Source: Peribolospora baueri (Eukaryota). Taken from it: a stretch of DNA of 20,000 nucleotides. The translations under genes and the position numbers were made by a program. Location: contig JAMDHS010000101.1 of NCBI GenBank assembly GCA_029717555.1, positions 50,672-70,671 on the forward strand. Reading direction: 5' to 3'. Numbering within the stretch: position 1 is the stretch's first letter; each line of letters begins with the position of its first letter. The notes below the pieces were generated by a model that had not been told where the DNA came from, did no database searches, and saw only the letters and a list, made by a program, of their open reading frames with translations. This document shows, in pieces, positions 1-19,998 of the stretch.

Positions 1-1788
1 TGAGGCTTCCGATGGCAAGCGCCTGCCTCCACTCCAACCCAGTGAGCCGAGCAGCGACGGATGTAGCAGTCATCTTGCTAATGAAGATAGCAACGACGAG
101 CAGGACGATGAGGCCCCACGTTTTTCCATCGTTGAGGAGGCGCATGTCGGTGGCGAGGCCGGAGACGACGAAATAGAGCGGCAGGAGCATACCCATCACC
201 AGTGACTCAATGCCTTCTGTAACTTTCACGGCGAAGACGCCGTGCGGACAGCAGATGCCGAAGGTGATGGCGCCGAGGATTGGGTGAACGCCGAGGGCAG
301 ACCTGGATGATGCGGTGGTGAAAATAAGAAAGGGTATGAGTCAAAGAGCCTTTTTTTGCAAAGGAGAACGTTCTTTCTTCTGCAGTCTTTTTTTTTCTCT
401 AGAGGAAAGGAAACGTGGAAACTTTGACTTACGTGAAGAAGGCGGAGATGAGGGCGCCTGCCAAGGTGAACGCCAAAACGCCTTCAGGGACCTTGCCACC
501 CTCCTCGGCCGTCTCCTCATAACCGCTCCTCTTCACCATCCAGCTCAAGATGGGCCGCACGGCTACCCATAGGAAGACGACAAAGCCGGCAAAGACGAGC
601 AGCTCGTACAATGCGTTAATGGGCGCCCCACCAGAACCAAGGGCGGAGCCGATGGCAAGGAGGATGTAGCCGAGCAGGTCGTTGAATACGCCAGACGCCA
701 TGGTCATGGCGCCGAGCTGGGTGGCCAGAATGCCCATCTCCGCCGCGACGCGGGAGAGCACGGAGAGGGAGGTAACAGCCATCACCGTGCCGACGAAGAC
801 AAAGAAGGTCTGAGGGCAGCGTCGGGAGAAGGAGAAAAGAAACACATAATGTCAGCGTCCTTGTTCTGACTCTGATTAGATTTGAAATTCGAACAAGGCA
901 TAGAGAGAAGTCTCACAGTAAACTTGATCGTCTGATCCGTCTCGGTCTTCCAGACAAGGTAGGACAATCCGGCGGAGATCGCAAAAGGGATGGCCATACC
1001 GGGCAGGACGATAGCAAGTACCTTCTTCAAGTACCGGGCCATGAGCGCGATGTCAGTCTCTAGGCTGTGGGAAAGGGGAGGGGAGCAGAGGGAAGGTTAG
1101 AAGAGGTGAGCGAGCGTCAAAGGGCAGAGGCTATGGGAACCTGGAGCGTGTGTAGCCTCCTCCCTCGCGAACCCGGCACGGCATCATGATGGACCGCAAC
1201 CCACCCAACCATAAACAAAAAGAAAATCAATCCGATGTTGGCCGTGACCGACAACAGCGGAATAGCATCGTGAGGAATGATGCTATTCGTAAAGCCGGGG
1301 ATATTACCAAAGGCCGTGGGCCCTAGAAGCACGCCAGCCAAGATCTCTGAAATTTTTGGCGCAAAAAGGAGAAGAGTCTGGGTTGAGAAATCCAGAGAAC
1401 AAGCTGAAGGACGTAATGCCAGCCCGAGCGGCGACGTACCTCCGACCACCTCGGGTTGGTTGATCGCTTTGAAAGCAGAGCCGAGCAGACGGCAGAGGAT
1501 GATGATGATACAGACCTGTGCCGATACAGAAGGGACGTAAGGGGAGGGAGAAGGAGGAAGGAGGTGGTTAGCCCGCCCAACCCCGCCCCCATTGTTGACC
1601 TCCTCTGCTCCCCCGCATAGAAAGGCGTTCGACGTCCCGACGGGACAGGCTCACGCCGCGAATCAGCTCACCTGAACGAGAAAGAGCGCAAAGCCATTAT
1701 TGGGGTCGGTGTAGCTGGTTGGGTCAAATAAGAGCGGATTGGCGTGGGAAAGGTAACCGACGTGCGAGTGGTTGGAGAAGGGGGACAT
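1..1788 (-). CDS. KHA1: KHA1-like K+(Na+)/H+ antiporter (Na_H_Exchanger family), 3' end beyond the left edge of the window
   Basis: Manual splicing, all introns GT..AG, frame continuous: exons 1788-1672, 1515-1440, 1346-1205, 1064-917, 809-433, 302-<1. Translation begins MSPFSNHSHVGYLSHANPLLFDPTSYTDPNNGFALFLVQ|VCIIIILCRLLG...QPEVVGEILAGVLLGPTAFG. It also contains GLIFFLFMVGLETD, MAVTSLSVLSRV, GVFNDLLGYILLA, GVHPILGAITFG and LLPLYFVVSGLATD, all motifs typical of fungal Kha1/plant CHX antiporters. Strict orthology to KHA1 is not established. Confidence 0.9.
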
Positions 1789-3025
1789 CGTGCGCCACGG
1801 GCAAATCGTTTGCTGGTGGCAGTCGCCGTCGTTGCCGTCGCCGTTCGCTCGTGGTAGCCGTTATCGTTGGAACGGCGCGAAGAAAGAGAGAGTAGGTCGC
1901 GGGGTAGGCGATCAGTCGCGCGACGCCATCGACGACGTGGAACAGGGTGCAAGCCGTGGAAGACGGGAGATGGAGAAGAGGAGAGAAGGGGGGCGGTGGC
2001 TCCTACTGTTACTGTACAGACGTTACTCTACAAACACCCCACCAAATCTCAGTCAGGTCCTCGTTGGTGGTCGGTCGTCGATCGTTGTTGGCCGTCGGCC
2101 GCCGGCCCCGGCCCTTCCTTTCCCACTCGACGCCCCTCTCGCGCATTGGCGGCGGGCGCCCGCAGGTGCGACGACCACGTGGACAGCCCGCATAGCCGCA
2201 GCAATGATGCAAGTGCAAATCGGGCACGTGATCTTCGCTGCGGCACGAAGCACAAAGGCTTTCTTCTTCTCCTTCTCCTTCGCTCCCTCCACCTCTTCTC
2301 TCCTTGCTCAGAACCACGACAGGAATCCTTTCTTTCGCCTTCCCTCGCTTCTCGCTCTGGTCGCAATGTCACAGCGCTTCTCCTTGAACGACGGCTCTCG
2401 CGCTCTCTGCCAAACGAGCAGACGCTTGCCTCGCACCGAACAGTGCCCATTCTTCCTCTCTTTTCCTCTATACCTCTCGTCCATTGCCGTCTCAATTCAC
2501 ATCGTACCTCCTACACCCCCACGAGGTCCAGGTGTTACTAAGGGCGGCGAGAGCGATTCTCTTGACCGGAGCGGTTGTACGCAACCGTTCCTTCTGGGCG
2601 TTTTTTCGGATGGCGGACGATTCTCCCGGGCCGTTTGTCCCTACGAGGCACCCAACATACCTTGTTCATTTCGCTCGTCTTTTCCGTTCCGATTTCATAG
2701 TCTCCTCTGTCTCACACGCTCATCTCAATGGAAAGACCGCTTGGATATACGAACGAACAACTTGGAATTGAACACCTTGGACTTGATGAGACAAGCTATG
2801 AACATGACGGATGAGGTGGATGGGACGGGTGCGGGGAATGGAACAAACACAAGTCGAGCACCGACGTGCACGGGGAAAACGAAAGATGCTATGAAAGACT
2901 TCGGACGGGGACAGCAGCGAAGACTGGGGATAGGGCATCAAGACCAGAATGAAGGGCTTTTCGGACCGACGGAGCGAAGCATTGAGATGAAACCGGAAAA
3001 AGGGAGGGTGGGTAGGTAGCGTCAA

Positions 3026-6000
3026 TCAAGGGTGCGGCTCGTACATATAGTCGAGCACCTTCAGGCAGCGCAGCATTCTGCTCTGCACCGCGTCTGCAGG
3101 CGAGAATCTCCCGAGCGCCAAACTCCTTGGCTCGGGCTGATGAGTCCTCTCGCTCTCCTCCAGACCCTTCACCAACGCGTCCAAGTCGCCCACCAGAGCC
3201 GTACCGAACTCTTCGATGCGCGTCCGGAGCTCGGTTGCGATGACCTCGCGCGAGTCGTGGACGTGCGACAGGTGCAAAATTAGCGCGAGTGTCTGCTGGA
3301 ATGTCTTGCTCGTACATTCACCCGCCGTCAGGATATTCACCACCAGCCGAAGCACGTGCGCGGGGATTTGTGGCGGCCGCGTCAGCTTCAGCTGGTTCGG
3401 GGCAGAAGCATCTGCGCCAGCAGTCAACGACGGACCGGCTTCTCCTTGTGCCGGCCTGCCGCTTCCCACCCCAGGTGACCCTTGTAGAGCCTCAGTCGCC
3501 TGCGCGGCAGAATCACCGGCCGTTGGCGGCTCAGTTGGCTGGCCGGGCCCGCTTTGTCCTTCTTGTTCGCTCGCCTCTTCCTTCTTGAGGGAAGTCAGCG
3601 GCCGGGTGATGGTGGACAGGAGGCTGGTAAATGATTCCATAAGAGCGGGCGTCTTGAGCAAGCTCGGGCGGTCGAGAAGACCGAGCAGAACCACGATCGG
3701 ATACTTTGTCGCTGGCGACGGCTTCTCCTTCTCCTTGCCTTTCCCCTTCTTCGTTTGCGACCGCTTGAGACCCACAGGCACGTCGCTCTCAGTGAGGAAG
3801 AGAAGAGGCACCTGAGGGTTGGCAGCGACGAGGTGCGCCAGAGCGTCGAAGGAGCGCTGCGCCAGCAAGTTCGGCACGTTCTCGCCAGGCATGTGAGCGA
3901 GAGGGCCTCCGGACCCAAAGAGGCCTGGCGTCGTCATCGCCGGCTCAGGGTTCGTCTTCTGTCGCTTCGGCGTCGGTCTCGGAATAATACCTTTGCCAGC
4001 GCGTAGGGGCGCTTGTGAGAAGCTCCTATCCATGGCCTGCGGATCGCTCGTGCCGTCTTGAAGAACAGTGAGAAGAAGGTTGAAAAGCTCGGTTCTCGTC
4101 TTGGAGTTCTCCGAGAGATTGGCTAGTACCTTGTGCAGCGCGCCCCTCTTGTTCATCTCCGGGAAGAACAGTAGTCGCACGAGCGTAGCCACGCCAGCCT
4201 TATCCAGGAGCTGAATAGCATCTCGCGACGGACTTGCCTTCTTAGACGACCCTGCCGCCGCTGCGCCTTGCTCGTCGCGTTGCCTGCCAGATTGGCCGAA
4301 CAGACGACGAGATTGCCTCGGTGGCCACCAATTTACTTCGGCAAGCATCGCCGGGGGCAAGGTCTGAAGGAAAGTCTCATCTTGATCCAGGAGAACGGTT
4401 TGGCGAAGGCTCGGGTCCAGGCCGGCGAGGAAACTGGCTGAGTCGATCTCCGCTGGCTGGCCCGCGGCCTCTTGACCACCCTCTCCGGCTACGCCTTCGC
4501 CGCGCTGTCGGCGCTGCTCCAATGACCGACGGCGAACTTGTTCCAGTGCCTCTTGCTGAAGGACTTCGGCCCGGATCTCAGGAGGGAGGGCTTCCAAAAA
4601 TTCGGGGCTGATATTGGTGTCCTGAGGCGCAGCCGCGGGCTCTGCTCTACGTTCGCGGAAGTGCTGGTTCAGCACCTCCTCCCGCATGTCGTCTGGGAGA
4701 GCCTCAAGGAAGCTCGGATCAATGCCCGTATCAGTAATGTCGATCGAGTTTCCGTGGACGGTGACAGTGACCCTCTCTGGCTGACCGGCCTGTTCGGATA
4801 CGCCTCCACCTTCTCCATTGCCGGAGGGACTCCTAGCGCCGGCGGTCGGAGTACCATGGGCGGCGGATACCGCGCCTGCCGGCGTGCCACCCGGCGTGAG
4901 GGCTTGCTGCAAGTCCCTCAGCTCCATCGCCTCTGCCGAAGACCCTGGAGCACTGTCGCTCACGTCTTCCATCTCTGCGTCGTCGTTGGAAGCGTGAGCG
5001 GCCGCTTCCGCTGCCTCTCTCGCCACGCGCTCCTCCTCTGCCCTTCTAGCCTCCTCCTCCGCCTTCCTTGCTTCTTCCTCCGCCTTTCTCGCCTCCTCTG
5101 CTTTGCGCTCCTCCTCTCGCTTGGCCTCTTCTTCCCTTTCCTTCTCTCGCCGCTGCTTTTCCTCCTCTTCCTTGCGCTTCTGTTCTTCCGCCTGGTGCAC
5201 CCAATAGGCCGGCAGAAGGGCGTTCAGAACGTGGTTGCGGAAAGACATCCACGACGACGAAGAAGGGTTGACGATGCGCGACTCTTCCTGCCAACGCTGC
5301 ACGGTCGTAATCGGGGTGAAAGATTGGACCTGCATGACGGGGTCGTAAGGCCTGGAGGCAGGCACGCCTTGTTGGCCGCCACGGGCTGTGATAACGGCAG
5401 TGGCTCGCGGACGCCGCTCAAGCCCTCGACCTCCTCCGAGCTCGCCGATCGTAGCCACAGCGGGCATCCGCATTGGCCCGTGTCCGTGCCCATGTCCATG
5501 CGGAAACTCGATGTGAATATCCGTTCCGTGCGCCGCACCGCCACGACTGAGAAGCGTTTCAAGGAAGTTGAGCACTTCTCCACCACCGCCGCCGATTAGA
5601 TCATTGATCGACTGCGCCCAATCGCTAAACGTCGCTTGACGACCGTCTCTGTGTGCGCGGCGAGCACCGTATGGAGCCGGAGGCGTAGCGCCCTCCGTGC
5701 GGTCGACTAGTAACGGGTGAGACGTCATATCGTCGTCCCCTCTTCGTCTGCCACCGGTCATAGTCATTTCCCCGTAGTCTGTCACGACGCAAAGGAAGTA
5801 GATGATGGATGTCAGAACCCAAAGCTCACATCATGGTAGATACCAGAGGCACTCACCCAGGAGGCGGTTTCGTCGACCACCACCAACCATGCTCATCATA
5901 TGCCCTGGCATGCCCGATGGGCGAGAACCGCGAGCACCTTCGGCGTCGCGAGCGAATGGCAGAGTAGTCCAGCCCCAGTTGGCGCCAAAGCGGTCATCAG

Positions 6001-9000
6001 AGAGCCCGGCTGGCGGCTCGCCCGAAAAGTCAACCTCCTCATTCTCGAAGAAGTCTTCCTCCTCGTCCATGATCGACTGCTCGCCGTCATCGTCTTCATC
6101 ACCATCGAATAAGGGTCCATCTAGAACAATTTGATCCTCGTCCACATCAACTTCTTCGACGATAGGACCGGCTTCGCCACCAAGATCGCCATCGGCCGCA
6201 CCGAGAACGTAATCGAGAGCTTCGCCATCCTCATCGTCTTCGTCATACCTAAGGGCAAGCATTTCTCATCGACAGTCAGCAACACTTCAACGTGATGAAA
6301 GAACTAAATGAGCACTCACTCTTCTTCTTCATCCTCGTCTCCACCTTCGTCTTCATCGTCTTCGTCCACCCATTCACCCCCACTTCCGCCTTCGTCGTTC
6401 TCGTCATCGTCGCTGTCTTCATTGTCGTCCTCGTCTGCATCCTCGTCATCGTCATCGATAACAACGTCCACATGCTCGTCAACATGGTGCATGTCGTCAA
6501 GATCGTCGTCCTCGTCACTGCGCGTCAAGAAGTTGGCAGAAGTCAGATCGGAATTCTTCGCGGCGGTCACAGCAGCAATGCTCACCTCGCATCGCTGTCC
6601 CCGAGGGTACCATCCTCCCCGTCGTACATTTCCTCATCGTCATCCTCCTCGTCCATGTCATCATATTCATCTGAAAGTGAGTCAGGCAAGACTGCATCAG
6701 CGCGCCTATCCACGTAAATAGTTCCAGCGGAAGGCCATTCTAGAGCTGACAACAACGGTGAAGTTGGGGAGATGGATACTCACCCTCGTAATCCATGCCT
6801 TCCATCTCCCCGGTGTGCATCCCGAGCGACGACGTGCGGTAGAAATCTGGAGTCTCCTCCCGGTCAGTATAATCGACCGACTCGTCCTCGCTCATCATAT
6901 CTTCGTCCGAGACCTCGGACTCTGAATGCTCCTCTCCTTTGTCTGCTCCATGGCCCTTCGAGGAGCGATCCGCCTTGCCCATCTTGATCGCGACTTTCGT
7001 GAGAAGCTCGAGGGGACGGAGGATCTCGTCCAAAAGCGCCTTCACGGACGGCAGGTTGAGATCGACATCGGCAAGCGCGTTGGTGAGGACCGTGACGTAG
7101 TTCTTCTCCAGCATCGTCTTAGCGATGTGCAGCGTTGAGTCTTCGCCATGCTTGGCTGAGCCGTTAGGTCGAGCCGTGAGGAGTCGGTGAGTGAGGTCAG
7201 CCAAAGCGTAGAGACGCCCATAACGGAGCTCGATGGGCTCGGCCGAGGCGGAAGCGTCTTTAATAGCCTTGGCAATACCATCGAGGACGAACTTGCGGAC
7301 AGAGACTAGCTCTGGAGAGACGTCCTTGACGTCCTGGTGAGTGGCTACGTCCGCGGTGAGTGCGACAAGAACGGACATGGCCCAGTTGGAGAGCGTCATT
7401 CGCTTGCGAAGTTCGTGAGAGAACTCAGTCTACGAAAAGGGAACCACCACTCATGTCAGTCTCGATATTTTACGGAACTCCTAGTCGATATAACGCCAGA
7501 CTCACATGAAGGAAGCCGAGCGGGACCAGTTCCGTGAGGAAGAACGAGAGAACGGCCGCCTTCGGCTTGATCGGCGTGGCAGGATCCCTGCTGCCCGAAC
7601 GCTTCTTGCTGAAGTTGATAAAGCTCAACTTGCTGGTCGTGTACGATGAGAGGAGCTCGGTGAGGCACTGCATGATGAAGCACGTGCAAAGGTATGGGGC
7701 GTCCTGCTCCTCCTGCGCGCCCTCGCCACTTTGTGGGCTGGTAGAAGCCGCGCCGCCGTTGACACTCTCAACCGGGGCAACATCTTGAGTGCCGCCAGCC
7801 TTGACGCCGGTAGAGTCTTTCTTGCTTGCAACTGAGCCAGTTCCAGTCGCAGCTGCCTTGGAGTGCTTCAAAAGCTCGGAGAGCAAGAAGTGTATGGCTG
7901 AGTCAAGCGCCTCGTTCGGCACCAGTGCAGGCGGGAGAAGGGCCACCTTCGACGGTTCGTCAACTTGCATATGCCCACCGGCCTTGGTGGGCGAAGCAGA
8001 ATGACCGCCACTCTCCTTGGTCGCTTCCGGAGACTTATCGCTCGGCTCCTCCTTGAGCTTGATGTAGCCCGATCCTTTTTCGGTGTTGAATTCGGCCAGC
8101 TCAACCGACGCCTTAGCCGCCTCGACGAAAACATCAGGGTCGCGATTGGCGGCCATGTTGTAAGAGCGGATAAAGTTGGACACATCGGTCAGCTTGTTGC
8201 GGCCAAGGGCGAAATAGGCCCGCATCTCGTTTTGCATGGCCGTCCTCAGTGTCGTCGTGTCCTCGGTGATGTGTCGGAGGATAGTTATGACCAACGGCTG
8301 ACAGCCTGCAACCTCTTTCGGCGAATTCAATAACGACTTGAAGATCAACTGCAACCCGTTCTGATTGACGAACTCGGCCGCCATGTCGTGTCGTCGGGTC
8401 AATAGAACAAGGGTACGCATAAGCGCCAGAAAGTCGCCCCTGAGCAATGTAGTCGATTCGACCCTGCGCAAAACGACCATGCATTGCTGGAAGATGAAAG
8501 AGCGAGCCTCTTGGAATAGCGGTGCCCTGCGCACACTGACATCAGACGGTATCTCGTCTTTGCCCAACAACTTGACATCCCGAGGTTCCTCGTCGATACC
8601 CAGAAGCGCGTCCGCGACGAGAAACTCAGAGGCGAGCCACCTGGGCAGAGGTGAGGACGATGGCTCGCGACGCATGAACTCCTTCGCGAGCGCGACAACA
8701 CAGTCCATCGCTCGACAGGCCTTTCTGTCGTCCATCTTCGGGCTGCTCAGCGACGTGTCATTGAGGATAAGGGCAAGCAAGCGGAACCGCACAGCGATGG
8801 TGGCCTCTTTCTCGTCGAATGCTGCTCCTTGGGCATCGTCGATGTCCTTCAGGAGAACGTCGAACGCGTTCTGGCCATCGCTCTTGATGGACGACGAGGT
8901 AAAGGCATCTTGCACGTCGAATACGAGTGGTTCGTGGTGATCGGCGAGCTCAAGCGCACGGCGAACGAAACCTTTTTCTAGGTCAAGCCGTACAGACTCA

Positions 9001-12000
9001 AGCTGCTCGCGAGGAGGTGGAGAGGGTTTCTCCGGTTCTTTGCCCTTGTCGCCCGGGTTGGCTTGCTCCTTCTCTCCCTCGTCGTTTGAGCGTTCGCAGT
9101 CATTGTCGTCCATCGCGACATCGTCTGCGTCTGCATCGTTTATAGACGTATCGCCCTCCGCCCTGGCGCCTGAAGTGTCAGCGGACGTCGACGTTTCGTC
9201 GCCTCCAGCGCGCTCGCCCTGGGACTGCCTCTCGTCAGCATTCTCTGGTGGCTGAGGCGTCGACGAGGAAGAAGTCCTATCCCGCGAAGCGCTTGCCGTG
9301 AGCTCCGGGTGCATGAGGAGGTATTCGGTGGCAGCGCTGAGGTTGTTGTGGCAGCGCACCAATGCGTTCTCTGCGGCCTCGCGAGAGAAGCCCATGTCCA
9401 TTAGCTGGCGAACCTTATTCTCGTCTGGCACCGTAAGTACCTGCATGCTCCGACGCATGGTCAATCCCGCAAGGCCACCTGCACTGAAAGGTGACGCGAC
9501 ACCGCTGCCCGTCCCGCTGCCAAGACCGCTGTCCGGCTTAGGGGGGGACTCTTCGCCCTCGCGCTTTAGGATGTTGAGAATGATTTGCACGACGGATCGA
9601 TTGATGCTGAGCGGCAAGGAGGCGAGCCAGGGCTTGTCCCATATCTCGCGAACGGCCGGAAGGATGGCGGCGCGAAGCTTGATAAGCAGCTCGTGGGGGT
9701 CAAAGTAATCTGGCGAGTCGCGGTTTCTGTCGCGGGAGGTCAGGACCGTAGTTTGAGCCGCTTCCAGCAATGGTTTGGCGGCAGAGAGCGACTGAAGGAG
9801 GTTGAGGACAACCTTGAGACCGCCACAGACGTGACCAAGTCGGATACCGGCATCCTGGTCCGGCTTCTGAACGGTGCCATCAAAGTTTGAGTCCACTTCG
9901 GCGATGTAGCGTCGGAGGATCTCGAAGAGCAACTCCGGGCCGCCAGCACGCTGGAAAGGGATTAGCAGGACAGTTTGAAGACCTTGGCCGGGGCCTTCGC
10001 CGAAGATCAATGTCGTCGTGTGCCCGACCATGACCGTCGCATACGCGAAATTGTTGGCTTCGTTGGACGAGCCTCGCCATCTCAAATGCTCAACCACGAC
10101 TCCAGCTACCACCTCTGCGATCCGCCGAGCTTGCACCACGTCAGGGTTACGGCGGTACAAAAGCATCTTGATGACGTCCTGGAAGAAGGACGAGAGTGAG
10201 ATGGGGATTTGCGCTGCTAGGTACCTAAGCGCCCTGCCGTTGTGCATGCGCCTCTCTTGCGGTGCGTTGGGCGCAGTCGGCGCCAACTTGATGTTGCTCT
10301 CCACGGAGCCAACTTGGACGTCGAAAAGCATGTCGTTGGGGAAGCCGGCAGCCGTTTGGTGGGGCTGCTCTACCTCTCGAGGGTGCGACGAATATTGCGC
10401 AGAATCGGTCTGAGAGTCGATGGCTGCCTCCGGAGAAGCGGGCTTCTCCTCCTCTTTCCCTGAAAGCGGCAACTGAGGGAGGACGGACTTGAGCAGGATG
10501 TTTTCCCACGTACACGTGCGCTGCAAAGCTCCAAGGCGAGCCAGCACCTGCTGCTCGTCGGTCCCATTAAGAACGCCAAGGAAAGCCGTGGCGACCTTGC
10601 CCGACGAATAGCCAAGCGTTTTGCACACATCACTGAGAAGATGTGTACGTGCGTTGAGGCTGACGAGAACCCGGAAGCTTTTGTTGGCCTCGGCAAGCTG
10701 CTCTCCAGCTGGCAAAACAGAAAAGGGCTAGATATGAGTGGGTGTGCAACCTTTGGCTAAGGGGTGGAAAGTACATCCGACTCATGAAGCTAGGCACTCA
10801 CGAGACACGTCCAACATTGGCAGCATCCTGCTCTCCGCAGAGGAACCCGCTCCCTCGGCTGCCCAAACCTGCCCGCTCTCCTCCAATGCAGTCTTGACGG
10901 CATTCACGAGCGCCTGCATTACCGTCTGTGGCTGTATCTCGCTCATGGAGCGTATCAGCGTAATCATCGAGTCGGCTGCCATGGACGATGCGAAGTCGTA
11001 TGGAAGGCAGGGAGACGCGTACAACCGCGACAGGCGCTCCATGCCGTCCGCCTTAAGAAAATCCTTGCAGTGCGAAACGGTCTGCATGAAGCTTTCAAGG
11101 AACTGGAGAAACGCAGAAAATGCCCGGTGGTAAGCACATCGAACGACAAGGGAGAGTCGCGCACGTTGGAAACCTCACCCTCGCAATCACGTCCATGTAC
11201 GCGACGACGCGGTTGTCCTTCTGACCGCCGTCCTTCCTAAAGATATCGCTCTCATCCATCACCACATCGGCCAGTGCTACAGAGCGGGGAGTGGGGCTGC
11301 TAGGCACAAGGCCACTTTGAGTAGCTGTCACCGTCGTAGAAGAGGCGGAGAGCCCTGCGCCCGTGTCTCCCATATCCACGTCCTCTGCTGTCGTCCCAAG
11401 CCTGCGATCCTGTTCGGACACAGCTTGGAGAGCATAGAACGATTGCTGACCCTCGTCGGGAACAAACTCTTGCCCCTCGCGCTCGATCGTCTCAAGCGTA
11501 TGGATGATGGAATCGAACACTCTCTGTTTTAGGCTGGGATGATGTCGAATAAGCTCATCAATGGCAGAGCCGAGCATGCTGGCGTTGTCCCTGTCCTGAA
11601 GAACTTTGGTGTGGCGCTGAGACGTGAAGATGCCGAAGAGCTTTGGGATGACCTCTTTGCTGTTGAATAGGTCCAGCCCTGCCTGGTTGAGGCAGAGCGC
11701 TCCAACAGCGTTAGGTATGGAGATGATAACGTCCCAGCTCGCCCCAATGTCTTGCTCGACGACGGCGTAAAACGCCTCAGGCAGCTTGGCCTCTTCCAGA
11801 ACGCCCAGGCTGGTTGGCTCGTTGTGGACAAAGGTGGCCATAATATTGATGGCCAGTGCCAGGATCTGTGGCCCGAAAACGGTGCGGTTCTCCATGATCA
11901 TGCGGATCGACTGCAGGAGGGTGCTGTCGATGAGGTTGCGAAGACCATCGGCGGTACCAGTCGAAGTCATCATGTGAGAGAGTGACTTCAGCATACTCCT

Positions 12001-14239
12001 CAAAAGGCTCGCTCGTCCGAATGGCAGTTTGCCGTAGACGTTGTCTTGGTGTGGCGGCGCCGAACTAGCGGCCAGAGGAGCTGAATCCAACTCTTCGCCG
12101 GATAGTCGGATATCGTACTCGACCTCCTCCTTGATCCTGCGCACAAGCGTCTCGAGGCCCTGCGCGTTGCAGAAAAGGCCAAAAGCAGGCTGGAACGCGT
12201 AGATGATGCTATCGAGCAGGCCGACGGCGCGAGATATGGTGCGGCAGACAAGGAAGGACTTGGGCTCGGGGATTTGAATAAACTGCACGAGCAGAGGGAT
12301 GATGCCGGCGCTGACAACCATATTACTGCCGGCGGGACTTGAGGAGATGAACGCGATGAAGCCTAAGAGACTATCGATGAAACCGTCGCTCGCCCGCGGT
12401 GGGTCAACAGCAAGGTCGGAGAGAGCCCGACGGATAACGTTAAGGAGGATGCCATGGTTGAGAGAGGCGTTGACGGCCCCCAACGTTTCTGACAACTTGC
12501 CACGATATCTGCCTATAGCGTCAAGAGCGTACAACGCCGCGCTCTGCACCTCTTGTGGCACGTCCCGTTCAGGGCGGATCAACTCGACCAAGCTTTGGAC
12601 GAGGTCGGGCTCATACAAGAAGAGGCGAGTGTTCGCGGTGGCCTCGGAGGCGATGTGCGCTGCGCGGAAGAGATACGGAACAGGGATCACAATATAAATG
12701 CGCCATACAATAAAGACAAGCTGAAACACACAGAGGCGGGGCGATACTCACCAAAAATTGCAATCGCGAGCAACCTCATCACCAACATCTGCTGCCTAGC
12801 CGCCGGATTCTGTATGTTCTGTGCCACTCGGATCTTCTGATATAGCGCGAAGTGGTCTTCCTTCGGGACTTCATTGTCCTGAGCTTGGGCGAGGAGCACA
12901 TCGATGGCGCGATCGCCAGACTTGGTGACGTCGCCCAGGTCGATTATGGTCAGACCTTCGTCGGTACCGGACGCTCCTTCCTTCCCCCCTGGCGCACCAG
13001 CAACTCCTGCTCCACTAGGACCAGGCGTCGTTACGGACGTCGGCGGTCCTCCAAGTGTGGCAGCTCGCTGGGGTACGCCTGGGCGAGATGGTCGAGAGGG
13101 CGTTGCGAAGATGTCCCTGTCGGCCTCCACTCTGTCCTCCCTGAATCCATTCGCACCTAATTCACCCTGCCTATCCAACACCCTCGAGGGATCGGTGCGA
13201 CGGAAAAACTGGAACTGCACCGTCTTGAGCTCGTCTGAAATCTGAGTCTCTGGCTTGGCGAGGTCGACGATCTCAACGCCGTGCTCGCGTGTGTTCCATC
13301 CTCGGGCTAGGCAGAGCAGGCGCTCTTCGGAAATACCAAATTCGTGGTGGATGGAACCTGTGCTGCCGTACTGCTGAGCGGGTCGAAGGATGAGACGAAG
13401 GGTGGCCTCTAGGATATCGAGGTCGTTGGTGAGCAGCAGCTCGTTGAGGTGCTAAGAGTTCGGAAGAAGGGGAGGAATAAAAACAAGTTGAGCAAACCAC
13501 ATAAAACAGAGCAATGCTTTGTGAAACAGAGGACACGAGACATGCACTCACCTCGTACGATGCATACAGCTTCCGATTCGTGCAGTTCTCCAACAGCAGC
13601 CTGGAGAACCTGATCACCGAGAGCAATAGCCTCTTAGTTCGAGGCGTGAAGTCGTTGACCTGAAGGCGCGGAAGGTCATAGTCCTTGCAGGTCTGTTCTA
13701 GGATAGCGTCAAAGCGGTTGAGCGTCTTGGTCCAGTAGTGGAGATCGCCGCGGGGCCAAGACCATGCTGAGACGCGGTCGAGGATGTCGGGCAGCTCGTC
13801 ATCCGGCGCAGCGGCAATTTGGTCGAGGAGGGCGACGACCTCGGGATGCTGGGGTTGCACAAGGAAGACGTGATGAGGGTGGCAAAGAGATAATCAGTAC
13901 GAGACAGTAAGAAAAGTTTCGCCTCCGTCCCTCACGCGTTCCTCGCCCGACAGCAGGCTCTGCATGGTCGTCCAGCGAGAGCAGGAGGATCCATCCATGT
14001 CCTTCGTCGACCTTGCCCGTTCAATCGCACATCGAACAAGAAAAAGACACTTCAAGCCTGCCATCCGAGCGACTGACCAAGCCGCAATCTACACCCCCAG
14101 CGGTGGCACGACTCGCGCGTGACGGACCGACCGATCACGGATCGCACGACGAGGGAAGCAGTCGAAGCCAGACAAAGGAAAAATGAGGCTCGCCACTCAC
14201 AGCCGGCGCAAGACGCTTGGGCATCCTCTTGATCCGCAT
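3026..14239 (-). CDS. TOM1: TOM1/HUWE1/Ptr1-family giant E3 ubiquitin ligase, N-terminal ~3364 aa only (DUF908, DUF913, UBA, acidic region, UBM/DUF4414); no HECT domain
   Basis: 11 exons joined by hand in one continuous frame: 14239-14201, 13848-13552, 13451-12752, 12659-11179, 11102-10802, 10708-7506, 7429-6784, 6670-6586, 6517-6320, 6248-5857, 5778-3026. Total 10095 nt including the TGA; every donor is GTGAG. Family motifs: WSWPRGDLHYWTKTLNRFDAIL, RLLLENCTNRKLYASYEHLNELL, INIMATFVHNEPTSLGVLEEA, IPNAVGALCLNQAG, LGSAIDELIRHHPSLK, UBA (LMDMGFSREAAENAL), UBM (IDPSFLEALPDDMREEVL), LRLVVNILTAGECTSKTFQQTL. Confidence 0.92.
4340..4726 (-). other. Tandem UBM/DUF4414 ubiquitin-binding motifs within the TOM1-like protein
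   Basis: GIDPSFLEALPDDMREEVL, ISPEFLEALPPEIRAEVL and IDSASFLAGLDPSLRQTVLLDQDETFLQTLPP match the repeated (D/S)PxFLxALPxxxRxEVL motif of HUWE1/Tom1. Confidence 0.85.
5000..5190 (-). repeat. E/K/R-rich low-complexity coding repeat (EEARKA-like units) in the TOM1-like protein
   Basis: EEQKRKEEEEKQRREKEREEEAKREEERKAEEARKAEEEARKAEEEARRAEEERVAREAAEAAA. Confidence 0.75.
9312..9425 (-). other. UBA domain within the TOM1-like protein
   Basis: DENKVRQLMDMGFSREAAENALVRCHNNLSAATEYLLM: MGF loop plus terminal LL, the canonical UBA signature. Confidence 0.88.
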
Positions 14240-14849
14240 GGCCACGCTTGGCTCCTTTCACTCGACGGGAGGCCCAGACGAAGAGGGAGCTGGGACTCTG
14301 GCGGCGAGATAAGATGAAGTAGATGTGATCGGCGTGCGCAGGCGGGTCGGATGTGGTGGAGGTCGAGATGGGAAGTCGAAGTGCTGAAAGACCCAAGCCC
14401 ACGCGCCGCCCGGCGACGAAGACGGATGCGACAGAAAAAGAAGAGGAAACAAGCGTCCTCCGGGGCCGGGTTGGGGGGAAGGGAGACGATAAGGACGGTC
14501 GCGACGACGTTTGAGAATCCCCTTGGACGACGGCGGCCGGACGATGAAGGCGAGAAAAGGCCACGATCGGTGATGTTTGAGCGGGCGACGACCGCTTGAA
14601 TCCGATTATCGCCGCTGGCTGCGGCAAGCTCTCATCCTACGCGGCGGGACACGCCTCGAGATCAGAGATGGGATGATGGATGGAGAGCAGCTTCATTCGC
14701 GGCCACACGATCGACGAGGCCTTCGTTCGCACTTACGAGACCATCTGCTGCCTTTTCGAGCAAGCCAGCCAGCAGCTGACCTTACTTTGTGCCGAACAGC
14801 GCTCAAAATCCCGAAGGCTAGACTTATCTTCTCAAGGTTTTAAGGCTTT
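14240..14849. promoter_or_regulatory. Divergent (probably bidirectional) promoter/5' UTR region between the TOM1-like gene and PCH2
   Basis: The start codons at 14239 (minus) and 14850 (plus) point away from each other, 610 bp apart. No specific binding site identified. Confidence 0.55.
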
Positions 14850-17361
14850 ATGCCCCAACCGTCCTCTGTCGGGTCGAGGGGAGGCGAGGATGACACGCTC
14901 CTTGGGGAGGATGACACGCTCTTGAACGGCGGATCCGATGTCAGCAAGCCGCCGGCGTTGGACAAGACGAGGAAGTACCCTCTTCATAGTGAGCGCTGGC
15001 CGGACAATTTTCTACAGGCCGATCGCGGAGACCATGACCATCAAACCGACTCATGCGCGATGTCGTCCCGCCCCACGCTTCCCATACCGGACAGTCGAAG
15101 TCCGACTGAACGCCCGGTCCACGATCAGGCTCGATACCGCCCGACGGATAGTGCATAGTCACATTAAGGATAACATGACCTCTCTCATTCGCGATTCGGA
15201 GCTCGAGGACTGGAGGGACGTGCCGACGCTCGCGGAACACGTCGAGTTGATAAGGGTCGCAGAGAGCTGTGAGTGCCTTTCCTAGAGCTTTCGAACTGAA
15301 AACAGAAGGAAGCTCTGTCGACGCCGTACCACCCGTACAAGTTACGGCCGAATGCTCCGTCAACTGACGAAGCTCTACACACTGTATGCGTCGCTCTTAC
15401 AGCTTTGCGACAAGAGGTTATCCCACTCTCATCCGCGGCGCTCCAGATTCACGTCTACCAACCAGCACTTTCGGATGACGTGGAGGAATTTGCAGCTGGA
15501 GATACTGATCCGGCTGCTGGGGACGGAGACGATGTGATGGCTGCCAGCGTGACTGAGTTACCGAGCCGGTCATTGGAAGGAGTTTGGGACAGGTGAGCAA
15601 GAAGGGTGTTCGGGGCCGTCAGTTAATTGGTAGCTTCGCGAAGCACTTGGTTTTTACAAAACCCTCGCCTCCATAGTGGGATGGGCAAACCCGACCGCGC
15701 GCCGTCTGCTGATCCCATCTTGACTGACTTATCCTCATGGGTTCATCAGTCTGATCTTCGTAGACGACGTGAAGACGCGGCTCCTCAATTACATCTACAC
15801 AACGGTGCTCTTTTCGGACGCCAACGTGGACTTTAACATTGTAACTTGGAATCGGTGAGCAGCGTCGCTGTCACTTGCGGACATCAGCTCGTAACTAATG
15901 AGCTGCAACTGCCCGCAGAGTCGTTCTCCTTCACGGGCCTCCAGGAACGGGAAAAACGAGCTTATGCCGAGGACTGGCTCAGAAATTGGCTATTCGATTA
16001 TCGAGTCGGTAAGTTATCATAAACGGTAGCTGCCGCTGATCTCCCAGTTCGCTCACATCACTTCATTTTCGTCTGCATCCCGTCTTTCAGCTACTCCCAC
16101 GGGAAACTGGTGGAGATCAATTCGCACTCTCTGTTTTCAAAATGGTTTTCCGAATCCGGAAAGCTCGTGCAACGGCTTTTCTCCCTGGTGACGGAGATGG
16201 TTGAAGATGAGGATGGTTTCGTCGTCATCCTCATTGGTAAGCTTCCTCACTCGCTGATAGATTTCCTTCCGCGCTCATCTACATTGACTGACCTCTTTTT
16301 TTCATGGAATTTCTGCGCCTTCGTACCTGCAGACGAAGTGGAAAGCTTGACGGCGGCACGAAGCGGTGCCATGTCCGGCGCCGAGCCATCGGACGCTCTG
16401 CGGGTGAGTAAGGAGGACGAGGACCCAGCTGTTTACCGAACGTTTCATCCGAGCCAGGCTGATACCCGTTACGTGCACATAGGTTGTCAACGCGCTCCTG
16501 ACGCAACTGGACAAGCTCAAGCATCGAAAGAACGTGTTGGTGATGACGACGTCGAATATCTCCCAAGCAATAGGTGCGCGGCGTTATGTCCCTTCATGCA
16601 ACGTGTTTAGCAGGTGTCGGGACGTCTTCCGAGCGGTTCTTGCCTTGCTTTCACCAGATTCTGCATTCATCGACCGAGCGGACATCAAGCAATATATCGG
16701 TCTTCCGCCAAGACAAGCTGTGTACTCTATCCTGCAAACCTGCCTAAAAGAATTGATGAGGGCTGGCATTCTCGTCACAACCGTGAGTTGCCGCGGACGT
16801 GAACTACCTTGATCGTCTCTGCTTCTCGTCTCATCGGCATCGGCCGGCCGTTTTCGAGCGCAGGATATCCTCGACTTTCGATCTGTCGAGCTTTTCCGTC
16901 ACGGAAGGCTCTCGTCCGAGTTCGACAAGTCCCGAAAAGCTAGCCTCAAACTGTACGATCTGGCGGGGAAATGTCATGTGAGCTTAGCGTCGGGGATTTA
17001 GTCGGAAGGATGGGTTCTTTAGAGATACGACGGCAGAGGATGAGCAGGTCGTCATCGCCGCGGTGTACGGGCCTGGCTTTTGACGATATGGCCTGTCTGC
17101 CCACTGTGGGTGAAGAAGCGTCATCTGGGCAGCTCTTGCTCACCACCTCTGTGCTCACCTCCATGTGCACAGGGCATGTCCGGACGCACTCTTCGTCGGC
17201 TGCCCGTGCTCGCCCACGCTCGCTACATAGGTCTCGCCTTCGGCATCCAGGAGGGAGAGGCGGAAGCGACGGACATGGACACTTGGCTGGACGCCATGGC
17301 GAGGACGGTGGAGGACGAAGGGGCTGCGATAGAGCGAATCGATGACAGCCCCTCCGTCTGA
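14850..17361 (+). CDS. PCH2: Pachytene checkpoint protein 2 / TRIP13 AAA+ ATPase, ~477 aa
   Basis: 11 exons, GT..AG, continuous frame (1434 nt): 14850-14988, 15095-15268, 15403-15592, 15750-15854, 15919-16008, 16091-16236, 16333-16403, 16483-16573, 16658-16782, 16864-16977, 17173-17361. Motifs: [41 protein letters not shown] (Walker A), [30 protein letters not shown] (Walker B), [45 protein letters not shown]. The exact start codon is less certain than the core. Confidence 0.95.
14883..14924 (+). repeat. 21-bp tandem duplication in PCH2 exon 1 (GEDDTLL x2)
   Basis: ggcgaggatgacacgctcctt followed by ggggaggatgacacgctcttg; in frame. Confidence 0.85.
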
Positions 17362-19497: not shown

Positions 19498-19998
19498 TCA
19501 AACGCAAAGGCAGGGTCGGGCAAGACGAAGGAGGACACGGTAAAAAAAGCCCAGTGAGACCAAGACAGACAAGACAGCAAAAGGCGTCACGTCGTGTGCC
19601 TGGCTGACTCGGAGATGGAACATATAGCGATAAGCTGTCCCCTGTCTTCTGTTCCTGAGCCTTTGCCTCTGACCCTCAGCCCGCTCTATTCCCCTGTCGT
19701 TGTCGCTTGAAGGTACGTCTTCTAGACCAGACTGGGGTAGCGCCTCAGGCGGGAAGCAGTCGATTCCTCGTTTCGCTGCGTCCACGAGACACAGCGGACA
19801 TATAGAGACCCGATATTCCGGAACCTCGCCAGTGCTCGGGTGTTGTCGCGAGGAATGAATTGCGATCAGAAGATTGTTCTGAGAGGGACGAGAAGATGGC
19901 GTAACCTCTTCGGGCACCTCGGTCCGGGACGCATCGGTATCGACGTCGTTGTCCAGTTTCCGTAGTCTCCGCTGCCGTGTCGAGGTGACTTTTGCAAA
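19498..19998 (-). other. Open reading frame entering from the right edge; possible 3' end of an unidentified gene
   Basis: Stop-free from 19998 (FAKVTSTRQRRLRKLDNDVDTDASRTEVPEEV...CPLC...) to TGA at 19498-19500. No recognisable motif. Confidence 0.25.

Follow-up and report, generated by a model that had tools for sequence, protein, structure and literature searches.

The ubiquitin ligase HUWE1/Tom1 is conserved and serves in quality control and stress. Its hallmark is that a single polypeptide holds the HECT domain, with the catalytic Cys, together with the rest of the protein, and in the one-chain forms represented by PDB entries 9egk, 9dns, 7jq9 and 9plr the chain runs in the order DUF908, DUF913, UBA, acidic region, UBM and terminal repeats. 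The ring of HUWE1 is described as closed through contacts between ARLD1 and ARLD4, and the hinge between ARLD4 and HECT as two three-helix sets (residues 3851-3893 and 3953-3986) with a disordered linker between them (Hunkeler, 2021; PMC8476073). For yeast Tom1, the HECT domain is given as residues 2889-3268; the head domain of Tom1p is described as making extensive contacts with the final body repeat leading into the first HECT helix, and this first helix as aiding ring closure (10.1101/2024.07.08.601072). Here, we report on a TOM1 gene of Peribolospora baueri that ends before its HECT domain. The gene lies on the minus strand of a 20,000-nucleotide stretch of contig JAMDHS010000101.1 (positions 50,672 to 70,671), which we call the window. 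We refer to this gene and its HECT-less counterparts as TOM1-N, and to the separate gene for the pre-HECT and HECT part in relatives as TOM1-C. TOM1-N is probably the scaffold half of a TOM1/HUWE1 ligase that was split into two genes in an ancestor shared with the sampled Ustilaginomycotina.

The window protein and one-chain Tom1/HUWE1 are alike in the order of their domains, from DUF908 to the terminal repeats. Nevertheless, there is a clear difference at the C-terminus: the window protein stops 127 residues before HECT, and the final helical block is absent too. It falls about 460-520 aa short of full-length orthologs. The same-chain HECT domain with its catalytic Cys, which marks the family, was not found in it; its domains and its place in the trees make it a member of TOM1/HUWE1, minus the same-chain HECT. 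Atypical fungal TOM1 sequences have been noted before. As far as the account of Marin (2018; PMC5913265) extends, 33 of 204 fungal TOM1 sequences are atypical, being potentially truncated or having duplicated DUF908/DUF913, and TOM1 is counted once for Ustilago maydis; the supplement of that study is a HECT-only alignment. In the literature that we searched (subscription journals lay outside its coverage), we found no description of a TOM1 split in Ustilaginomycotina and no papers on the locus tags UMAG_05564 or UMAG_03442, the two U. maydis genes considered below. A subphylum-wide two-gene giant HECT ligase is apparently undescribed.

The TOM1-N gene

An independent rebuild of TOM1-N gave 11 exons and 10 introns on the minus strand, which encode 3364 amino acids and one stop. 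The introns are 68-352 nt long, and each has GTGAG at its 5' end, followed by T, G or C, and YAG at its 3' end. The terminal open frame (3026..5830, minus strand) finishes ...FSPADAVQSRMLRCLKVLDYMYEPHP, and the C-terminus of the window protein reads ...LRCLKVLDYMYEPHP, terminating 4 residues past ...LDYMY. Pfam searches with the exon frames identified PF06012 (DUF908) and PF06025 (DUF913) with E values from 7.7e-30 to 3.5e-90, a UBA domain (PF00627/PF22562, E 2.6e-11) and UBM (DUF4414; PF14377, E 8.2e-30) in three stretches; the stop-to-stop frames with these domains succeed one another between about 13900 and 3026. A D/E-rich acidic stretch lies between UBA and UBM, at about residues 2170-2400 of the model, and the product of exon 11 aligns with yeast Tom1 residues 2535-2760.

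Protein databases searched with the window protein held no identical or near-identical entry; the best identity was 49% among longer matches and, among matches of similar length, 57% over half of the query. The best 120 longer matches show 43-49% identity over the query region, and HECT is present in 117 of them. When aligned, full-length orthologs run 453-463 residues past the end of the window protein (8/8), this extra part beginning with a variable linker and a conserved helical block and continuing through a second linker into HECT. Three full-length orthologs used in tblastn searches halted at residues 3127 of 3665, 3344 of 3865 and 3117 of 3632, respectively. No Pfam match to HECT (PF00632) was obtained in 33 stop-to-stop frames of the window. 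We also made a TOM1 C-terminus profile from the last 520 amino acids of 110 orthologs and ran it with all filters off against the window in 660 six-frame pieces; every bit score was negative, and the best E value was 7.9. In the three minus-strand frames of 3100-1700, nothing resembling the EK..IY..F.F..LW block and no candidate exon was seen. These results agree with the original prediction on several points: the rebuild confirmed its 11 exons and uninterrupted frame of ~3364 aa, the interval 1789-3025 confirmed its 1237 bp between the stop and the ATG of a same-strand antiporter gene, and the Pfam and profile searches over the window bore out its statement that the nearby open reading frames (ORFs) lack HECT. 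Its statement that TOM1 kin continue for several hundred residues past the LLR.L..LDY helix also holds, at 453-463 residues in 8/8 orthologs.

The arrangement was then compared, over window positions 1-14700, with Logan short-read contigs of four runs (X1-X4). In 4/4 runs, one contig of 24-26 kb spans this region whole. The contigs of X1 and X2 (organism A) match the window exactly, and those of X3 and X4 (organism B) differ from it by 159 substitutions and 43 gap letters, which corresponds to about 1.1% divergence. Contig depth is 77-118, equal to that of the other contigs compared. No joint is reported in the four contigs, and the loose ends near the stop are other contigs that share just 18-28 nt. 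The stop, the spacer and the antiporter gene are collinear at single-copy depth in two related organisms. Of the 162 substitution places and 25 indel places that distinguish A and B, 40 and 12, respectively, are described here; among these, the TOM1-N stop and the last 88 codons are the same in organism B. Misassembly, one of the options left by the original prediction, is contradicted by contigs that cross the stop, the spacer and the antiporter gene in 4/4 runs, and a misjoin at 3026 was rejected because these are single collinear contigs from two organisms. A decayed pseudogene was likewise rejected, given the intact 11-exon frame and the ordinary branch length of the protein. Since the frame is intact, the depth single-copy and the branch length normal, a decayed or unexpressed partial duplicate is unlikely. 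TOM1-N is an intact, complete gene that is normal for its own lineage, neither broken nor misassembled.

Separate scaffold and HECT genes in relatives

Scaffold halves were collected by an exhaustive cluster-representative search with the last exon of the window protein, followed by name look-ups. They were found in Tilletia walkeri, T. indica and T. horrida (3429-3475 aa), Exobasidium rhododendri (3650 aa), Tilletiaria anomala (3365 aa), Pseudozyma flocculosa (3286 aa), Sympodiomycopsis kandeliae (3395 aa) and U. maydis (UMAG_05564, 3702 aa), and among several Logan/ENA proteins. Nine scaffold proteins were searched with Pfam: DUF908, DUF913 and UBM were identified, UBA in most, and HECT was absent by Pfam from 9/9. 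Conservation of the last TOM1-N helix is seen in 9/9. In a survey of 194 proteins of at least 2400 aa, the C module is present in 173 and lacking in 21, and 18 of these 21 are of Ustilaginomycotina type. Fifteen of the 18 terminate ...LRSLRAL(D/E/N)(Y/W)xxxG(R/K), 4-5 residues past the LRxLxxL(D/E)(Y/W) helix, so that relatives do break TOM1 at the same residue, a check which the original prediction had proposed; the remaining three (Exobasidium and two others) carry an extra low-complexity tail of 40-55 residues. UMAG_05564 terminates ...LRSLRALNYIMTGR and has no C module. The missing HECT domain is not a peculiarity of one genome but a trait of the whole subphylum, as seen in the HECT-less clade around the window. 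A further HECT-less model, that of Mycena venus TOM1 (3194 aa), stops inside the second linker; TOM1 of its close relative Favolaschia is full-length, and the truncation in M. venus is probably an annotation artefact.

Phylogeny supports orthology of the window protein to TOM1, since it is nested within basidiomycete TOM1. In a first tree, it stands alone as a deep branch of ordinary length. In a tree of 27 rows, it is sister to eight HECT-less proteins, and both the eight and the group of nine have support of 100. A careful IQ-TREE analysis of the first 1300 residues, which included UMAG_05564, separates the window protein and seven others from the 12 remaining sequences at 100/100, and the seven Ustilaginomycotina TOM1-N from the rest at 99/99. 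A tree of all long matches (178 rows) contains a 12-tip clade round the window with support of 100; its other members are HECT-less (11/11), and among the 178 rows no HECT-bearing row falls inside it. The branch of the window protein is 0.42-0.44 long, and the others range from 0.25 to 0.85. The window organism appears from these trees to be the earliest sampled branch of the HECT-less TOM1 clade, a placement that fits because the gene has ten introns and ancestral-looking terminal repeats. One fission on the stem of the clade would be the simplest reading, and the fission appears to be old and clade-wide.

The partner gene was found when the C-terminal module (453 aa) of a full-length TOM1 was used to search shorter proteins. 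The best 120 matches to this module include 23 named Ustilaginomycotina proteins of 540-680 aa, which cover 92-100% of the module and whose sole Pfam domain is HECT (PF00632). They come from the genera Ustilago, Sporisorium, Pseudozyma, Thecaphora, Testicularia, Melanopsichium, Moesziomyces, Kalmanozyma, Malassezia, Meira, Exobasidium, Violaceomyces, Ceraceosorus and Parajaminaea. The alignment takes in 17 of the 23 proteins, and all of them (17/17) begin with Met and a non-conserved leader of about 50-150 residues. The leader is followed by the …LA.IYE.F.F..LW..LS..L.R…LLPLIESxMV block, as is found after the break in unsplit TOM1. Next come a short linker and the F.FTE.HRKILN helices, and the protein ends in a complete HECT domain that includes the catalytic Cys. 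Sixteen positions of the first helical block are invariant in 17/17; the invariant residues include L63, Y67, W76, L79, L96-L97-P98, I100-E101-S102 and M104-V105, and the HTCFNQ site is likewise invariant. In a tree of basidiomycete TOM1 C modules, the TOM1-C proteins are united in a single short-branched clade with support of 100. One entry outside the fungi, a 648-aa protein labelled as the fern Adiantum nelumboides, shares a 90%-identity cluster with TOM1-C of Meira miltonrushii and looks like fungal contamination of a plant assembly.

Both halves are present in 3/3 species checked for both. In U. maydis, UMAG_05564 and UMAG_03442 (571 aa) lie on different contigs (560,724 and 733,962 nt), as do PFL1_06891 and PFL1_02220 in P. 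flocculosa PF-1 (657,210 and 1,024,930 nt); in E. rhododendri, CBS101457_003625 and CBS101457_003636 are non-adjacent on one contig of 5.45 Mb. Public labels of such split pairs are 'UBA domain-containing', 'DUF913-domain-containing' and 'HECT-domain-containing', and the proteins are uncharacterised. Compared with the U. maydis, P. flocculosa and E. rhododendri pairs, the window protein is alike in its clade (100/100), its domain set and its end past the same helix. It differs in being the earliest branch, with 50-56% identity, and in its 4-residue tail; its gene is further distinguished by ancestral-looking terminal repeats and its 10 introns. Gene fission, the first of the options originally proposed, is thus supported by relatives that carry a separate pre-HECT and HECT gene starting in the same linker. 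The wider proposal, that the catalytic module is encoded elsewhere in the genome, holds for the three relatives, where the partner is unlinked or non-adjacent; for the window organism itself the partner was not located within the window.

Position of the cut and relation of the two halves

The last helix of the window protein aligns with yeast Tom1 residues 2749-2760 (LKILTTVDFLYT), and residues 59-571 of UMAG_03442 align with Tom1 2762-3268. Because the one alignment ends at 2760 and the other resumes at 2762, the two halves would be directly adjacent in one-chain Tom1. By this alignment, the break is placed between Tom1 residues 2760 and 2762, 127 aa ahead of the HECT domain. The TOM1-C profile aligns with HUWE1 3789-4374 in one stretch. 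An AlphaFold2 model of TOM1-C, made from the 17-row alignment, is of low confidence, with a mean predicted local distance difference test score (pLDDT) of 45 and a predicted template modelling score (pTM) of 0.29; at this pLDDT, it shows a disordered region (1-45), three helices (47-111), a gap (113-140) and three or four further helices (144-182). We read TOM1-C as both three-helix sets plus HECT, the mapping to the HUWE1 helices being made by collinearity and not by residue-level alignment.

Comparable HECT-less TOM1 models, each with a separate HECT protein of 424-507 aa, occur in Pucciniomycotina, namely in Meredithblackwellia eburnea, Phenoliferia spp. and Atractiella rhizophila. They are alike in having two separate proteins but unlike in where these end and begin: the N half ends past the LLPLIESLMV helices and the C half starts F(L)xFT..H, so that the break falls within the linker that joins the two three-helix sets, about 70-100 residues beyond that of Ustilaginomycotina. 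The two M. eburnea models have accession numbers that differ by 51, and their contigs are of equal size; in Phenoliferia spp. and Atractiella, the two models are on different contigs. If real, these splits would be independent events, because the lineages sit among unsplit relatives, and gene-model error is not excluded as their source. Kinship of the window gene with the HECT-less models of Kriegeriales through the same event was rejected, as the tree puts those models inside Microbotryomycetes and their break point differs.

We consider that the two halves have probably continued as partners, because the first block of TOM1-C and the last helix of TOM1-N are conserved and both halves are kept in 3/3 species. 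The genome of the window organism would then also carry a TOM1-C gene elsewhere, and the two proteins would reassemble without a covalent link. The helical block of TOM1-C is predicted to stack on the last repeat of TOM1-N, so lengthening the solenoid from its C-terminal end; a second contact of TOM1-C would be with the N-terminal head of TOM1-N. The ring would close as it does in one-chain Tom1/HUWE1, which would yield a two-subunit HECT E3.

A different history, in which the halves have been independent since the fission, is unlikely. TOM1-N would then be a ligase-less scaffold for ubiquitin and substrates, or TOM1-C may have been lost in the lineage of the window organism, and TOM1-C, where present, would be a small stand-alone HECT ligase. 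Such independence is consistent with the window holding no TOM1-C, with the unlinked genes of the relatives and with solved structures of isolated HUWE1/Tom1 HECT constructs that start near the same region (5lp8 and 9cmr). However, the helical block with which TOM1-C starts is invariant or nearly so in 17/17, and the sole known role of this block is packing in the solenoid/helix bundle. The conservation of the last TOM1-N helix (9/9), the retention of both halves and the branches, which are lengthened in neither half, also argue against it.

It is very improbable that a single polypeptide is still made, either by trans-splicing or across a very long intron that holds the antiporter gene. ORF-called fragments of some other basidiomycetes stop in the same linker (8/120 matches), which hints at an intron there. 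Against this stand the in-frame stop, which is found at the same place across the clade with a conserved short tail, and the splice sites: GTGAG is the sole donor type of the TOM1-N introns (10/10), no such donor occurs in the final 200 nt of the frame, and the nearest lies at 2715, 311 nt beyond the stop. Furthermore, the partner genes of relatives lie on other contigs and start with Met and a leader. Because the halves are apart, the stop is conserved and TOM1-C has its own start, cis-splicing is disfavoured and trans-splicing is needless.

An artefact or a dying gene, whether through a misjoin at 3026 or as a truncated pseudogene or partial duplicate beside a full-length TOM1, has next to no weight. 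In its favour, the window may itself derive from runs X1 and X2, which would then not be independent, and a diverged full-length paralog may lie elsewhere in the genome. Against it, a contig with this collinear order also occurs in X3 and X4, from a second organism that is about 1.1% diverged, and its depth is that of the contigs nearby. Furthermore, neither the frame of 10.1 kb nor any of the 10 introns is damaged, the branch length of 0.42-0.44 is ordinary and no HECT-bearing TOM1 appears in the clade among the 178 rows.

Returning to a single old fission with continued partnership of the halves, several observations weigh against it. The last repeats of the window protein are closer to those of unsplit lineages (VLRLVVNILTAGECTSKTFQQTL) than to those of crown Ustilaginomycotina (RLAAVV.PL.T.ISSKGFQ.TL), and its 4-residue tail is EPHP, compared with TGR in the crown group. 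These ancestral-looking repeats and the different tail leave a small chance that the chain was broken independently at the same loop. The Pfam and C-terminus profile searches found no TOM1-C gene of the window organism in the window. In the last 176 codons, the listed differences between organisms A and B number six, three synonymous and three amino-acid-changing, and, with 12 of the 25 indel places listed, the TOM1-N frame of organism B may be interrupted.

Genomic fragments of Phaffia-like TOM1 enter unrelated sequence a few residues past the same helix (LLRVLKTLEH). This suggests an intron in the linker of other basidiomycetes, and the fission may have occurred at an ancestral intron position.

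Flanking features and significance

The coordinates of the gene and its immediate surroundings are collected in Table 1.

Table 1. Features of TOM1-N and its downstream flank, in window coordinates.
Feature	Position	Strand	Basis
TOM1-N coding span	3026..14239	-	ATG 14239-14237, TGA 3028-3026; rebuilt model and orthology
Exon 1 (MRIKRMPKRLAPA)	14201..14239	-	N-terminus fits MKITK.PKRLAPA of relatives
Intron 1, 352 nt	14200-13849	-	Rebuilt model
Exon 2, DUF908 start	13552..13848	-	Pfam and rebuilt model
Exon 3, DUF908	12752..13451	-	Pfam and rebuilt model
Exon 4, DUF908 end and DUF913 profile positions 1-346	11179..12659	-	Pfam and rebuilt model
Exon 5, DUF913 end	10802..11102	-	Pfam and rebuilt model
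Exon 6, solenoid body; UBA at about 9428-9303	7506..10708	-	Pfam and rebuilt model
Exon 7, body; acidic region begins	6784..7429	-	Rebuilt model
Exons 8-10, acidic D/E-rich region	6670-6586, 6517-6320, 6248-5857	-	Rebuilt model
Introns between exons 8-10, 68 and 71 nt	within 5857..6670	-	Rebuilt model
Exon 11, last 917 codons and stop; three UBM repeats, then final helical body repeats	3026..5778	-	Pfam and model
Three UBM repeats of exon 11	about 4741-4330	-	Pfam
Last conserved helix SRMLRCLKVLDYMY; protein end 4 residues on (EPHP)	3041..3082	-	Aligns to Tom1 2749-2760
TGA stop, putative fission point	3026..3028	-	Same in second organism (no difference listed in 2700-3289, runs X3/X4)
Spacer, 1237 bp; TOM1-N 3' flank and antiporter promoter/leader; no coding similarity to the TOM1 C-terminus	1789..3025	.	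Profile and frames
5' part of Na+/H+ (Kha1-like) exchanger gene; runs off the window; separate from TOM1	1..1788	-	PF00999 on three frames; ATG 1788-1786

Around the stop, window positions 2700-3289 (590 nt, of which 326 lie beyond the stop) show zero differences between organisms A and B among the places listed. On the same basis, 19 substitutions and two indels fall in the remaining spacer (1789-2699), and at the spacer's rate the chance of no difference in 326 nt is P about 0.001. The unchanged stretch beyond the TOM1-N stop may be a constrained 3' untranslated region or another element. The whole spacer is also spanned by a stop-free frame of 420 codons on the plus strand (1757-3019), which ends 7 nt from the TOM1-N stop. 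Its length was unmatched in 5000 first-order Markov resamples (mean 150, maximum 392), and it gave no Pfam match and no usable match in the ESM Atlas. It is probably not one gene, because a 1-nt deletion at 2260 in organism B would break the frame. An Rfam search across the window gave no match. Of the other frames of the window, one at 16483-16812 (plus strand) matches a TRIP13/Pch2-type AAA lid (PF23242, 5.2e-06) and one at 19498-19998 (minus strand) the GEN1 C-terminal domain (PF18380, 2.2e-11); both are ordinary flanking genes.

The split is conserved across a subphylum that includes the genetic model U. maydis and the skin yeasts Malassezia. It also bears on annotation, where scaffold halves go under names such as 'UBA domain-containing' or 'DUF913 protein' and HECT halves either count as 'TOM1' or are set aside as truncated models. 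Recent structures ask how ring closure and the HECT tether control the activity of HUWE1/Tom1. A natural two-gene form, in which the chain is cut at the last repeats before HECT, would offer a direct test of whether the halves bind and of ring closure in cis, and it would also allow exchange or regulation of the catalytic subunit to be tested. We tentatively suggest, at somewhat less than even confidence, that TOM1/HUWE1 can work as a two-subunit enzyme, with its catalytic HECT subunit supplied in trans and docking onto a scaffold of 3300-3700 aa, and that this split has been stable since the origin of smuts and Malassezia and has re-arisen at a neighbouring linker in other basidiomycetes. If this is true, the junction before HECT would be a natural plug-in point, and, with two genes, the cell could control how much catalytic subunit is made, where it is placed or how it is assembled without having to alter the scaffold.

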